Virus record (IMG/VR): IMGVR_UViG_3300028596_000001
Strand: one strand, 5' to 3'
Length of the DNA stretch: 64,000 nucleotides
From: a virus
Lineage: Duplodnaviria > Caudoviricetes
Positions 1,200 to 61,423 of the stretch are shown one piece after another. Position numbers and translations under genes: made by a program. How positions within the stretch are numbered: the stretch's first letter is position 1; each line of letters opens with the position of its first letter. The notes under the pieces were generated by a model. The model was given only the letters and a program-made list of their open reading frames with translations. It searched no databases and was not told where the DNA came from.

Positions 1200-4100
1200 T
1201 TAAGGAAGCAATTCAGCAGCACGCAGGAACGTGAAGTTACCATCATCCTGAGGGAAGCCAGAGCTCACCGGGATAATGCCGCCCTTACGACTGTAGCTCA
1301 GTTCCAGGTCGCCGATCATGAATGGCTGACGCCGCTCGATGAGCAGGATCTGGTTAGGCCCAGTAGTAACGGTAGCTGCGTGGATGAGTTTGCCACTTTG
1401 CCGCAACTTGGTGTCGGAGATAATGTAATGCCCTTTCTCCCCGACGATTGTGGCGTATACCCAATACTTCTTGTTCTGTGGTGCCGGATCAAGGTCACGC
1501 AGATCTTGGATACCCGTAGGCATCCGGTGCATTGTCCCGTTGATCATCAGTTCTACTTCTTCGAGGAAGAAGATAGCCCAAGCCACTTCGGGATAAGCAG
1601 TGATCGTTGCGTAGTAGCTGGTGTCCGCCCCATTGACTACAGGGAAGATCCGACAAGCACCACCAGACGAATAGATGAGCTCAGTAATGCTAGCACGATT
1701 AGCAACCGACCGATTCACCACGTCGCCTCGGGTACGTCCTACCTTAGGGATGTTGGTAATCGCGTCACCTTCTACCCAATCGGTAACAGTTCCTCCCAAG
1801 TTGGTGATCGCCCCAGTGCCGATATCCAGATCAAAGATAGTCAGGTCCATCAGCTGCGTACCAGTAACGGAAACGAAAGCCGAATTGTAGGCTGCCTTGA
1901 AAGTATTACCGGTCCGGTACATGCTCAACATGCCACGGTTTACGAGGTAAGCCGACCAGCCAGCACGCGAAGGAACTGCGTGATCGAGCTGAACGTACTC
2001 ACCTGGATCGCTGAGTACCTGGAAATCGGTAATCAGGTAGCAACCGGGGTGGTTTGCATTAGGTGCTTCCACAATAGGACGGATGTGGAGTAGCCGGGCG
2101 TTCAAGATGGGCGATGAGGCGTCCGCACGTTCCGGATACTTCATGTGCAGAATCGCACTATTCAGACCAGCAAACATCCCACCTACGGCACCGTCCAGCA
2201 TGTTCACGGTGAAGGACCAGAAAGCTCCTTGCTTAGCCGGAGGAATCAAACTACGCACTTTAGCCTTGAACGATTCGGACAACCCGTAATAATCGTTAGG
2301 CTCGTACATCATCTTCTGGTTTGCCACGTCCAGGGTGCGACGGTAGGTTTTAGGGAAGGTGAGGAAAGCTCCTGCTGGGTTAGGTGCCTGGAATGCTTCC
2401 GAAGGCAAGGTAAGGCGAGACAGCATATACAACGATGCACTAGACCAACCACAGCAAGCCATACTCATGTTACCAGCACCAACTCCCCGTGCCGCCAACT
2501 CTGCTGCCGAACCAGTAATACTGATCACTGCTTCGAAAACAGACATGTTGGTGTCGTACACAGTGTTAACCAAAGGCCGGCTGTAAACCTGGCCATAGTT
2601 AATGTTGGAGACCTGGGGACGGATCGCATAATCACCACTCACATTCCGACAAACCACTTTGGCATGAATGCCTGCGTTGGCCGGACGGTTAATGGTGGTT
2701 GGCGTAGTTACGAAGTTCTCTCCTTCAAACTCGTAGGCCAGATATCGTGTACTCAAACCAATCGGAACTGGGGTAAGGATGTTCCGACGTCTGAGCTGGA
2801 TGTTGTGCGCCTTGATACGGTCAGTTCCAACGTGCCCCCGCAACAGCTCCTCCCTGCTGTTAATGACCTGACCACTGGAACTATACGCCCACTTAGTAGT
2901 CTGGATGAAGCTATTGAGCGGGACCATTTCCGCAGCATCGTCGGTTACGCCGCCCACGGTCTCACCCTGTGGGGTGGTAATAACCGCCTGCTTAACAAAA
3001 CGAACTGTGTAGTTATACCAGTTCATCATTTTTGTACGTTCGTTGACCCAGCCCACCGGGTCATTGTAGTCGACGTTAAACGTTGGCTGTGTGTACAGAG
3101 ACGTCATCGCACCAGTAGCGAGGTTGATCTCGTAAACTACGTTGGTGATAGCCTGAACCGGGTTAAAACCCAACCCTGGTGGGGTGTAGTCAAAGAACGT
3201 AAACAACACGACGTTCAAATAGGCTACGTTAGCCGCTCCAGTCTTCTTGGCCATCATCGGCAAGATACGGCGACTGAACTGACCGTTAGTGTTCGCTGCC
3301 AACGGGATAGGGCTAAAGGTGTAACGACCCCAACGAACAATCCCACCATTAACAATCTGACGCTGGGCGTATTCCCAGTGATTGTAATTGGAGTAAACCA
3401 CACCGTCGTAGTCTGGGTAAGTGATCTTGATCAATTCCCAGGTAGCTGGAGTAGCGTCGATCAGTGCTTGTTTAGGAATTCTCCAGAAGCTCAGACGACC
3501 TGCCGAGTGGATACCACCATCCGTGTTATATCCGTGGGATTCAACTACCAGGATCGCCCAGTCATCAATCAGGTTAACCGACATCCGCCCGTGGTATGGA
3601 TAGACATCGAGTTTACTGGTAGGGCTGATAGCCCCAATCTGCGCATAGACCGGAGCCATGTTGACTTTGATGTACCGGTGTCCCGCCGGGTCAAAGCTGT
3701 TATTGGTGAGGGCCAAATACCATTTATCGTTTACAGTCGGGTTTGACCCATAGGTCTGACCGACCATGATGATGTCGTTACCACTACCCATGATGATCGC
3801 ATCGGGTTCTACCCCAATGTTGGTCAGTACTGGCGGTTCGTACTTATAAGCGGTATAGATGAAGTCATACAACTTGTTCGGGTTGAACGGACCGTTGTAA
3901 TCACTCAGCGTGGAGAAGTACAACCCCTCGTTGCGGCCATCGAAATGGTTTTGGATGATAACGGTACGACCATCCGGCTCGATACAAATACCCATGCACT
4001 CAGAACGACTACCCAGCCCCTCGAAGGAACCAGTAATGATCGGAGGGATGTACCCGCCGTTACTGAACTTGCTTACCGGCAAGATACCAGCACGCATTGC

Positions 4101-19961: not shown

Positions 19962-19985
19962 AGCAAAAAAAAGAAACAAGACTAC

Positions 19986-26841: not shown

Positions 26842-26904
26842 AATTAGTTTCTCTAACCTAATAATTTAGGTTTGAAATATTCCATTGCGAAAAAAAAAAC
26901 CTCC

Positions 26905-40841: not shown

Positions 40842-40909
40842 ATACCCTTGAGAATAAACGAAGGCAACCTATAGCATTTCAACGAAAATGCAAAAAAAAA
40901 GAAACATAA

Positions 40910-59162: not shown

Positions 59163-59200
59163 AAAATACCCCCTACCCTTAACGGGGTAGGGGGTATTTT
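59163..59200 (-). terminator. Terminator hairpin
   Basis: 16-bp stem AAAATACCCCCTACCC / GGGTAGGGGGTATTTT, loop TTAACG. Confidence 0.8.
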
Positions 59201-59207
59201 ACTATGC

Positions 59208-59642
59208 CTACACTTTAATCTGTTTTGGATCGATGCCAGCTTTATTCAAGAGATCCAGTTGATCCTTGGGTAATCCTTGTTGTCTAGCTTGCTGTTCCCG
59301 TTTGGCTGCCTCTGCTTTCTCTCGTTTATTAAGTCCTGAACTAACCGCTTCCAAGAATTCGTCCACGACAACGGCAGGGAGAGTCAAGAAATCCTTGGGA
59401 TCCATGAGCTCCTTCAGTTTGTGGTATCCGTAGTGCTCGCCAATTTGCTCAAGCGACCACGGATGGAAGAAGTCATTCTCAGCAGAGAAGTACCCAATAG
59501 ACGAGAAGGGAGTTCGAGTCTTCTGGTTGTAGTACTCAAGGTTAAGATCAACCATCATCTTCTCATTGAGTGCTAAAGCCTCGGGAAGCATGTGTTTCGT
59601 TGAGCGTCCCAACAACTGCTTGGTAACGCCCTCATGCACCAC
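59208..59642 (-). CDS. T4 gp51-like / tail-chaperone 'T'-like ORF; probably also or mainly expressed by -1 frameshift from the upstream gene
   Basis: YHKLKELMDPKDFLTLPAVVVDEFL resembles gp51/T-type segments. The GTG start has no well-spaced SD, and the frame is open upstream through the slippery site. Confidence 0.55.
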   Translation of the reverse strand: MVHEGVTKQLLGRSTKHMLPEALALNEKMMVDLNLEYYNQKTRTPFSSIGYFSAENDFFHPWSLEQIGEHYGYHKLKELMDPKDFLTLPAVVVDEFLEAVSSGLNKREKAEAAKREQQARQQGLPKDQLDLLNKAGIDPKQIKV

Positions 59643-59677
59643 GCTAAACTCGATCTTCCCTCCCGGACGGACGCGCG

Positions 59678-61423
59678 CTATTCGGAGAGGGCTTTTGCCT
59701 TTGCTTCCAGACTTTCGGTTGCGGCGTTCATCATGAGCAACTGGATATGGGTAAAAAAACTCATGATCGGGTCGATCGGAGTGTACCCCAACTTACGTTC
59801 TTTCAGACCTTCCGGATCTTCGAGCTCCGCCTGGTTCTTCTTGCACTTCGGACAGTCGAAGTTCTGAAGGGCGACGAAAGACTTCGACAAGAACGGAGTC
59901 TTGTTGATGATGTCTTTGGTCAGTACCAGGTTCAGATACTTGGACTCCTTGATGACCTCCAAGAGACCTTCGTTGAAGTCGTTCTGGTCACGAGCACGAT
60001 CGCGATCCAGGACAATGTCCTTTTCCTCGCTGTTCGGCGGAGCGATACCAACGAAGAGGTTCACCCAGTGGATGTACTCAGTGGCCCCCAGGTCGGTGTA
60101 GAGCATGTTGCGCTGGGTTTCGTACTCTTCTGGATCGATGATCTTGGTACGCAGGTCTGCCAGCATCGGCGAGATACGACCGGAGAAGTAGTCGAAGGTC
60201 ATGAAAGCGTCTGCCAGCGAAGGCGAGGCCAGTTCCATGTAGATCGACTTGTCTTCGTTGTACACCTTGGCAGTGTCCAGACCGAAGTTGGCCTTCTTGA
60301 TCAGCGCCAGCGTTTCATCCGCGGTGTAGGTCACCTTGTGGTTGAACAGGTTGGCGTAGATCGCAGACTCTTCATCAGTGTCGTGCCAGTCGCGGTGGTG
60401 AACGATCTTTTCCGGATCGACCAGCTGGAAGTCTTTCCAACCACAGCCAGGCGCAGCACAGATCAACTGCATGTGCACACCCTTGTTGGTGTACGCGCGC
60501 AGCAATGAGGTGGTCAGTACGTCGATATCCGTCCAGCGGATAATACGAGCCAGCTGGGAGAAGTCACCGATGTCGCTGATGCTCGAGTAAGTGATACGCG
60601 AAACGATGAAGTTCCAGATCACTCGGGCGGCGGCAACACGAGCCAGGATCACACTGTTGTTGTTGACTTGGCGGACGTAGCCCTTGATCGCCGTCTTGAT
60701 GTCGTTGATCAGGTTACCCATTTCCATCTTCGACGGACGGGTGATGATCAGCTTGGTGAACGAGTTGCGCAGTTCGATATCGAACATCAGCTTCCCGTCT
60801 TCAGCATTGATCGACCGGCGGCGCATGATCTCGGAGTCTTTCAGGTTCTTGGTGTTGAGGCCTGGTTTACGACCGTTGATGTCGGAGGTAACCAAACCAC
60901 CGCGGTCACAGACGTTGGAGATGCCTTGCTCACGAATAGCGTTGGAACGCATCTTCACTTCGTCGAGGAACTCGGTGTAGAAGGAGATCATGCGCGAGGC
61001 CATCTCTTCTGCATCGTCTACCGTCAGGTCTGGGTAGTTCTTCTCGACAAAAGCTTCCCAATCGAGTTCTTGCTTCTTCGCTGCAGCAGAAAACTGCATC
61101 GGATCGGCGTCGGCCATACGGCGCATGGTCATCAACTGGATAAACGGCTGCATCAGCTTGGCCGAGTTATCACGCGATGCTTTGCTGTTGCCCAGGAACA
61201 CCGTGATATAACCTTGGGCGATCTCGTCTTCAGTGAGTTCGCGAACAAGACACGTCTGAGGAATCAGACGCTTCTTCATGGTGGTGTTTTCGGCGGTGTG
61301 CACTTCGTTGAAAGTCGCCGGAGTCACCTGGGGTTTCTGTTCTGCTGGAGCCGCGGCTGGAGCTGGCGCAGCAGCTGCTTCTTCTGCTGGTCGTTGACCG
61401 TTAATCTCTTCTGACATCATCAA
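59678..61423 (-). CDS. T4 gp26-like baseplate-hub/tail assembly chaperone with Zn-binding Cys pairs (581 aa)
   Basis: D..VL..SLLRAY...QLICAAPGC and CPKC pattern, as in gp26-like chaperones; low-complexity N-terminus. Confidence 0.5.
   Translation of the reverse strand: MMMSEEINGQRPAEEAAAAPAPAAAPAEQKPQVTPATFNEVHTAENTTMKKRLIPQTCLVRELTEDEIAQGYITVFLGNSKASRDNSAKLMQPFIQLMTMRRMADADPMQFSAAAKKQELDWEAFVEKNYPDLTVDDAEEMASRMISFYTEFLDEVKMRSNAIREQGISNVCDRGGLVTSDINGRKPGLNTKNLKDSEIMRRRSINAEDGKLMFDIELRNSFTKLIITRPSKMEMGNLINDIKTAIKGYVRQVNNNSVILARVAAARVIWNFIVSRITYSSISDIGDFSQLARIIRWTDIDVLTTSLLRAYTNKGVHMQLICAAPGCGWKDFQLVDPEKIVHHRDWHDTDEESAIYANLFNHKVTYTADETLALIKKANFGLDTAKVYNEDKSIYMELASPSLADAFMTFDYFSGRISPMLADLRTKIIDPEEYETQRNMLYTDLGATEYIHWVNLFVGIAPPNSEEKDIVLDRDRARDQNDFNEGLLEVIKESKYLNLVLTKDIINKTPFLSKSFVALQNFDCPKCKKNQAELEDPEGLKERKLGYTPIDPIMSFFTHIQLLMMNAATESLEAKAKALSE
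59753..59759 (-). other. Candidate -1 programmed ribosomal frameshift site (T TTT TTT)
   Basis: AGT TTT TTT ACC in the 0 frame; the -1 frame is open from here to the stop at 59208. Confidence 0.55.

Follow-up and report, generated by a model that had tools for sequence, protein, structure and literature searches.

The locus described here raises the question of whether two neighbouring open reading frames (ORFs) of a jumbo phage are two genes or one. They lie on the minus strand of a 64,000-nucleotide stretch of viral DNA (IMG/VR virus record IMGVR_UViG_3300028596_000001, Caudoviricetes; hereafter the window), in which a gene of 581 codons, with a run of seven T bases close to its end, is followed in the -1 frame by an ORF of 144 codons (Table 1). 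An original prediction, made from the letters of the window, had proposed that a programmed -1 frameshift on this run fuses the protein of the first ORF to that of the second. Fusion of the two by slippage, whether of the ribosome or of RNA polymerase, is very probable from comparison with related phages.

The minus-strand codons at the site read CCG ATC GAC CCG ATC ATG AGT TTT TTT ACC CAT, in which the two Phe codons of the slippery heptamer T_TTT_TTT are codons 556-557 of the 581-codon ORF, 24 codons before its 0-frame stop TAG (59678-59680). The -1 frame has a TAA 11 codons upstream of the heptamer and is then open (...EFFYPYPVAHDERRNRKSGSKGKSPLRIARVRPGGKIEFSVVHEG...) into the ORF at 59208-59642, crossing the 0-frame stop, a 35-nucleotide (nt) gap and the 144 codons of the ORF without a stop. 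Elsewhere in the gene Phe is encoded 19 times by TTC and three times by TTT, which makes the tandem TTT TTT anomalous, and the GTG at 59642 has only a poorly spaced Shine-Dalgarno (SD) motif, a GGAGG lying 16 nt upstream. The predicted products are a short form of 581 amino acids (aa) and a trans-frame form of about 738 aa, with 2-3 residues fewer if an ATG start is used. The original prediction had described the heptamer, the codon anomaly, the -1 frame, the badly placed SD motif and the two product sizes, and all were found as described. A run of seven T is in itself unremarkable, with 10 matches observed in the 64-kb window against 9.1 expected; the significance of the heptamer lies instead in its conservation, since its phase, an open frame and at least six T recur in 47/47 distinct loci.

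No DNA-level relative of the locus was present among 50,697 phage records, and relatives were found by protein only, a level at which both ORFs are syntenic across jumbo phages. The loci compared were those of the window, 12 annotated phages (EL, RisingSun, FishSpeaker, Miami, Vibrio phage 2 TSL-2019, PS1, pEt-SU, SXP01, Kc263, LAh10, AH04 and OBP), 27 IMG/VR loci, phiKZ, and 10 deeper lineages reached with phiKZ gp77 (201phi2-1, Xoo-sp14, RSF1, SA002, Ea35-70, PCH45, Bacillus phage AgentSmith, SPN3US, Eowyn and Halocynthia phage JM-2012), which after removal of duplicates gave 47 distinct loci from about 19 lineages at 20-40% protein identity. phiKZ gp77 itself was found by the family profile (E value 4e-13), with the small ORF 076.4 (gp76.4) following after a 218-nt gap, and EL ORF047, 201phi2-1 gp136 and SPN3US gp39 (phrog_4585) are further orthologues of the large gene.

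All 47 distinct loci have the downstream ORF in frame -1 relative to the large gene, and in none of them does a stop interrupt this frame between a point a few codons short of the heptamer and the last codon of the downstream ORF, across annotated gaps that range from -4 to 218 nt and are 2 mod 3 in every locus. The heptamer is TTTTTTT in 35 loci, TTTTTTC in nine, TTTTTTA in two and CTTTTTT in one, and its position in the protein is constant, after a conserved ...TPIDPxM-x-FF motif. Kc263 and AgentSmith, the two phages with TTTTTTA, have Leu in place of the second Phe and keep the slippery pattern. The 0-frame tail past the heptamer is conserved as well, up to a stop that follows ...ALS(E/D) and is itself conserved. 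What is observed directly on these genomes is the site, with its open frame, and the conservation of both. AgentSmith (L050, 922-3074) has the same gene, with T_TTT_TTA and an open -1 frame over a 215-nt gap; its host is Gram-positive, its large gene is annotated as a 'putative baseplate hub assembly protein', and the frameshift feature may reach beyond phages of Gram-negative hosts.

Codon choice at the site differs from that in the rest of the genes. The first Phe codon is TTT in 19/19 lineage representatives, against 122 TTT and 270 TTC in the remainder of the genes, and the codon before it ends in T in 19/19, over Ser, Asn, Ala, Thr, Gly, Val and Leu; the corresponding values of about 1e-11 and about 1e-10.6, calculated as if lineages were independent, are optimistic, being lower bounds on chance because the lineages share ancestry. 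Synonymous sites are saturated at the divergence of these lineages. In a 0-frame alignment of the large gene, in which the overlap was set against 507 equal windows upstream, the third-position difference was 0.352 in the overlap against an upstream median of 0.495 and minimum of 0.408, the synonymous codon difference was 0.210 against a median of 0.386 and minimum of 0.269, and 0/507 upstream windows fell to the value of the overlap by either measure. At F-F-T, and again at K-A-L before the stop, the synonymous variation of the overlap is zero. The two frames of this overlap encode, in the window, a 0-frame tail of THIQLLMM...KALSE followed by TAG and a -1 peptide of YPYPVAHDER...SPLRI.

The linker was examined by threading the nucleotides of 19 sequences from the clade of the window onto the -1 protein alignment. 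Differences at the three -1 codon positions numbered 3070/2466/3993 in the linker, taken from the 0-frame stop to the first conserved Met, and 7838/6153/11350 in the downstream ORF proper, the two sharing a third-position-rich pattern, while the overlap was flat (1550/1386/1372) and changed least overall, as dual coding predicts. To judge from these substitutions, the linker is evolving as coding sequence, and no orthologue has a stop in it. The comparative tests that the original prediction had proposed, namely an in-phase heptamer conserved among orthologues (T_TTT_TTN in 46/47 and C_TTT_TTT in 1/47), suppressed synonymous variation in the overlap and coding conservation of the -1 linker, therefore all came out in favour of programmed -1 frameshifting, by which the downstream ORF is joined to the 581-aa protein.

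The public records tell a different story, as all 22 of the genome records inspected annotate the ORFs as a pair of unrelated, hypothetical genes and none joins them. They would be correct if these were two ordinary separate genes, with the second starting at GTG 59642 or at ATG 59555-59558, possibly by termination-reinitiation, and with the T run and the open frame as by-products of Phe-Phe and of chance. Candidate start codons are indeed present in many loci, the phrog_19747 alignment begins only at residue 25 of the downstream ORF, and the 4-nt ATGA-type overlap in 201phi2-1 is typical of coupling. Separate genes, however, leave unexplained the -1 phase in 47/47 loci over gaps of such different length, the stop-free linkers everywhere with their coding-type substitution just past the 0-frame stop, and the choice of TTT and NNT against the genes' own usage together with the low synonymous variation. 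phiKZ has no ATG, GTG or TTG within 75 codons after the slip, and L022 (one of the loci compared), RisingSun, pEt-SU, LAh10 and Kc263 have no start codon before codon 62-68. Residues conserved in the linker (FS, LLG) sit upstream of the first available starts in phiKZ, L022 and RisingSun among others, and because these residues precede any start codon, independent initiation cannot account for the constraint on the linker. Across the loci a start codon is conserved in no alignment column, and few SD-like motifs occur. In the AT-rich phiKZ a stretch of 87 -1 codons is free of stops, although elsewhere in the gene this frame has 0.18 of them per codon. Two independent genes are, on this evidence, very unlikely.

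How the frame would be changed is a separate matter. The original prediction had noted no obvious stimulatory hairpin, an impression borne out by the folding of the 60 nt downstream of the heptamer, which are no more stable than shuffled sequence (z ~0), by RNAalifold on 17 sequences, which predicted 0 pairs, and by 30-nt folds upstream, which held no conserved hairpin; a 5-bp hairpin just before the T run in the window, picked up in a terminator scan, was rejected as a stimulator as it is not conserved. Since no stimulatory RNA element was found up- or downstream, the U-run by itself would seem to bring about the slip, or else some feature that escapes these tools. The lack of such an element at the site would also suit transcriptional slippage, in which RNA polymerase, of phage or host, would stutter at the T run, add one U and yield the same two isoforms, as would the nature of the conserved element, a homopolymer of 6-8 T, the possession by these phages of multisubunit RNA polymerases of their own, and the fact that the remaining runs of at least seven T in the window are all on the coding strand. 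Yet nine distinct loci have only six T and one has C_TTT_TTT, and six-T runs are short for efficient polymerase stuttering, judging by bacterial and viral cases. The run is, moreover, always in X_XXY_YYZ phase, which is relevant to the re-pairing of tRNAs and not to a polymerase, although the conserved Phe-Phe confounds this point, and phiKZ-type RNA-seq contigs from three studies, which run through the linker to about the -1 ORF stop, carry the genomic T7 and no other run length, although contigs drop rare variants; the one run of raw reads looked at did not include the phage. Slippage by a polymerase, the main rival, is unlikely to be the source of the fusion. A single gene in which a recurrent homopolymer error of sequencing or assembly only simulates a frameshift is scarcely credible: homopolymers are error-prone on some platforms, but the same run-length class and phase occur in 47 distinct loci from isolates and metagenomes, obtained over some 20 years on different platforms, the RNA-seq contigs of the three studies match the genome at the run, and the 0-frame tail after the heptamer is itself conserved up to its ...ALS(E/D) stop.

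The best explanation, probable as a whole with the slippage placed on the ribosome, is that the large gene belongs to the phiKZ gp77 family, a core gene family shared by Chimalliviridae and their jumbo relatives, and that its C-terminal two thirds encode a predicted fold like that of the T4 hub assembly proteins gp26/gp51. Most ribosomes would end at TAG 59678-59680 and give a protein of roughly 580 aa. A fraction would slip back one base at T_TTT_TTT, both Phe tRNAs re-pairing on UUU, and would read past the 0-frame stop and the 35-nt stretch into the downstream ORF. The resulting product of about 738 aa would consist of the shared first 557 residues and a different, mostly helical C-terminal extension of 181 residues. 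Made at a fixed ratio, the two isoforms might act together in tail or baseplate-hub assembly, where the extension could add a second binding surface; this shared function in assembly, suggested by analogy, is the least secure step of the explanation. From the sequence comparisons we infer the slip, its efficiency, and the ribosome rather than RNA polymerase as its agent.

The large protein offers some indication of function. Both ORFs belong to PHROGs families of unknown function (phrog_4585 and phrog_19747), and searches of Pfam and NCBIfam gave no family match for either part, nor did either fall into a tail assembly chaperone (TAC) or PHROG chaperone family. An AlphaFold model of the large protein from 25 sequences had a predicted local distance difference test (pLDDT) score of 78 and a predicted template modelling (TM) score, pTM, of 0.78. 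In the ESM Atlas its residues 207-563 superposed on a 260-residue cluster representative (TM 0.75 by target, 254/260 residues aligned, root-mean-square deviation 3.9 Å) whose cluster has PF12322 in 84% of members, and in BFVD the matches, after jumbo-phage orthologues, were T4-like 'baseplate hub subunit / hub assembly' proteins including one gp26 (E 6e-4 to 0.1, probability ~1, TM by target 0.45-0.59). Distant hidden Markov model matches of the large family cover the same span. T4 gp26 and gp51 are both members of PF12322 (1e-64 and 4e-52), and the four invariant Cys of the jumbo protein (C322, C327, C524 and C527) repeat the gp26 layout of C82, C84, C187 and C190, with CPEC at 187-190 in gp26 and CPKC at 85-88 in gp51. 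The two Cys pairs probably form a four-Cys metal site.

At the level of sequence, the PF12322 profile had no match in the protein nor anywhere in its genome, and none in 10 distant representatives of the large family, which provide no sequence bridge. For the large protein, neither Foldseek against the PDB nor VIA-align over 48,161 chains produced a convincing match (best Z 6.9, over 48 residues), a result that does not make its fold new, and sequence-profile searches of the PDB with both parts found no relatives among solved chains. By its predicted structure the large protein is thus a fold-level relative of gp26/gp51 and not a demonstrated member of their family. The original prediction had likened both ORFs to gp26/gp51, and while the likeness holds for the Cys-motif protein, through its fold (TM 0.75) and Cys layout, it does not extend to the downstream ORF, where hhalign of the extension against gp51 gave a probability of 0.1%. 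The extension is predicted to be mostly helical; neither a shape search of the Atlas, with a best TM of 0.32, nor a feature search was informative, and no relatives were found outside these phages. A resemblance of the downstream ORF to the T domain of lambda, also suggested at first, fared no better, there being no family match and a poor model.

The locus does not sit in a tail-gene cluster: in the window and in the 12 annotated phages it is flanked by genes for the virion RNA polymerase beta' subunit and structural proteins and, on the opposite side, by that for DNA polymerase. Virion or mass-spectrometry notes are attached to the neighbouring genes in the records of phiKZ and 201phi2-1, but not to this gene. 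Because of the missing virion note in these two records and the lack of relatives among solved chains, the large protein fits a non-virion assembly factor, as far as sequence and annotation can indicate, and a role in tail or hub assembly, argued by analogy, is an evenly balanced proposition.

Several points weigh against the explanation given above. One locus of the 47 has C_TTT_TTT in place of an unbroken run, and the shared ancestry of the lineages tempers the codon statistics. Possible starts for the downstream ORF exist in some loci, including the window (GTG 59642), and in 201phi2-1 gp135 and the end of gp136 share 4 nt (ATGA; L044 2943-2946), an arrangement that resembles coupling; the small ORF may also be translated independently besides the fusion, for example in 201phi2-1. 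With a conserved hairpin or pseudoknot found on neither side of the site, the efficiency of the slip may be low and is not predictable, and as the RNA-seq contigs drop rare variants, minority mRNAs with an extra U would escape notice in them. The trans-frame protein is deduced here by comparing genomes. Where function is concerned, the link to gp26/gp51 is between predicted models on both sides, and hhalign against T4 gp26 and gp51 singly, or against a 22-sequence gp51 alignment, recovered CPxC only, at a probability of 5-25%, the alignment giving 25%. The extension modelled alone reached a pLDDT of 61, which is poor, and its role is a guess owing to this model and to the lack of recognisable relatives.

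The tail chaperones of lambda (gpG/gpGT), P2 (E/E+E') and Mu-type phages are made by a conserved -1 programmed frameshift. The jumbo locus resembles these G/GT systems in having a probable -1 slip on X_XXY_YYZ near the 3' end of a morphogenesis gene, with a short and an extended form that would share an N-terminal body, in the T-rich heptamers found in some of them, in a site that is conserved where sequence similarity is not, and in proteins that are apparently not virion components. It differs from them in that the jumbo protein is 4-5 times larger and has a gp26/gp51-like predicted fold with a four-Cys site and no TAC family, in that its gene stands beside virion RNA polymerase and DNA polymerase genes and not between the tube and tape-measure genes, and in that its extension of about 180 aa is unlike the T domain. 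The comparison is valid as an analogy of mechanism and not of membership, and the proposal that the locus is a hidden G/GT tail-assembly-chaperone system was not upheld, as neither a TAC family or fold nor the expected position was found.

The resemblance to T4 gp26/gp51 is of another kind. In addition to the superposition of residues 207-563 on the PF12322 cluster model and on the BFVD hub proteins, the order of the motifs is that of gp26, with a mid-domain Cys pair followed by a C-terminal CPxC, and T4 also needs two related forms, the paralogues gp26 and gp51. The jumbo protein nevertheless has no sequence-profile match to these, and it carries about 200 extra N-terminal residues and large insertions; its extension is not detectably related to the C-terminus of gp51; and the two forms of T4 come from two genes, whereas those of the jumbo phages would come from one. 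We know of no frameshift in T4 genes 26 and 51, and the mechanism of gp26/gp51 is still unclear. Two isoforms by -1 frameshift are also produced by gene 10 of T7/T3 (10A/10B) and by E. coli dnaX (tau/gamma), which, like the probable frameshift of the jumbo locus, involve a single gene, a slip close to its 3' end and isoforms with a common N-terminal part. The product of gene 10 is a capsid protein, however, and the dnaX frameshift truncates rather than extends its product and uses an upstream SD-like element and a downstream hairpin, neither of which was found at the jumbo site.

These comparisons allow a wider proposal, which is doubtful and offered as speculation: that phages with contractile tails, in both the T4 and the jumbo lineages, generally need a hub or tail assembly factor in two isoforms at a fixed ratio, a need met in Chimalliviridae and some other jumbo phages by a stimulator-free -1 frameshift in one gp26/gp51-like gene and in T4 by the paralogues 26 and 51. 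The gp26/gp51 family would then be an independent functional counterpart of G/GT, and the extension of the long form would dock the chaperone on a tube-initiator or tape-measure complex.

No description of a frameshift in the gp77 family was found in the published literature searched, and the 'gp77' of the literature examined refers to genes of other phages and not to the phiKZ gp77 family. phiKZ and its relatives rank with the most intensively studied phages, for the phage nucleus, CRISPR escape and use in therapy, and a frameshift would have clear practical consequences for the annotation and study of phiKZ-like phages. If it occurs, a core protein, an isoform in the 700-aa class, is missing from genome records and from the proteome and interaction lists derived from them; phiKZ gp76.4 is largely or wholly the C-terminal domain of gp77; and knock-out, transposon sequencing (Tn-seq) and expression studies of either ORF need a different reading. 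The rule of frameshift pairs for tail chaperones would extend from the small G/GT proteins to an unrelated, much larger protein family linked by fold to gp26/gp51, and the site would be a natural frameshift on a bare U-run without a recognisable stimulator, conserved over very deep divergence.

Table 1. Features of the probable frameshift locus in the window, with positions numbered from the first letter of the stretch.
Feature	Position	Strand	Remarks
0-frame gene	59678..61423	-	581 codons if begun at TTG 61423; ATG 61420 or 61417 is the likely start
Predicted T4_baseplate (gp26/gp51, PF12322)-fold domain, codons 207-563	59735..60805	-	ESM Atlas and BFVD matches
CAAPGC (C322, C327), first Cys pair	60443..60460	-	Invariant in alignments
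CPKC (C524, C527), second Cys pair	59843..59854	-	Invariant in alignments
Slippery heptamer T_TTT_TTT, in phase AG[T TTT TTT]	59753..59759	-	Kept as T_TTT_TTN in 46/47 distinct loci, C_TTT_TTT in 1/47
Dual-coding overlap	59678..59752	-	Suppressed synonymous variation; flat codon-position profile
35-nt stretch, intergenic in genome records	59643..59677	-	-1-frame coding pattern; no stops in any locus; gap 2 mod 3
-1 frame extension, 183 codons from the two Phe	59208..59759	-	Stop TAG 59208-59210
Downstream ORF according to ORF finder, 144 aa from GTG	59208..59642	-	phrog_19747 aligns only from residue 25
Terminator-like G+C hairpin and T tract	59164..59200	-	Directly after the -1 ORF

Directly after the TTG at 61423, the start assigned to the large gene by the ORF finder, come two consecutive ATG codons (61420 and 61417), preceded at a short distance by AAGGG. 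Since the protein of this gene in the public collection has 579 aa, translation probably begins at one of the two ATGs.

Homologues of gp51 (T4 L043 4480-5229; P0182-P0273) carry PF28602 beside PF12322, and a local Pfam scan of T4 gp51 did not return PF28602; this domain probably covers the gp51-specific C-terminus. The other runs of at least seven T in the window are a T8 at 19965-19972, a T10 at 26890-26899 and a T9 at 40892-40900, all on the minus strand, and there are none on the plus strand.

A short hairpin at 59655-59695 (minus strand) pairs the last 0-frame codons with bases past the stop and holds the stop codon in its loop. The same arrangement is present in L013, L017, L018, L020, L022, L024, L025, L029 and L035, and in OBP (L012), Kc263 (L009) and Vibrio phage 2 TSL-2019 (L005), with arms that differ by locus (CCCTCTCCG/CGGGAGGG, CTCGG/CCGAG, TCTCG/CGAGA). 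Its stability against shuffles is weak (mean z -0.66), and lying more than 60 nt from the heptamer it is too far away to be a classical stimulator.

The hairpin that follows the -1 ORF, with arms ATACCCCCTACCC...GGGTAGGGGGTAT and then TTTT, is a probable intrinsic terminator that would end the transcription unit. The RNA assembled in phiKZ-type RNA-seq contigs ends at a similar place, where the -1 ORF reaches its own stop (L054, about 4053-4069).

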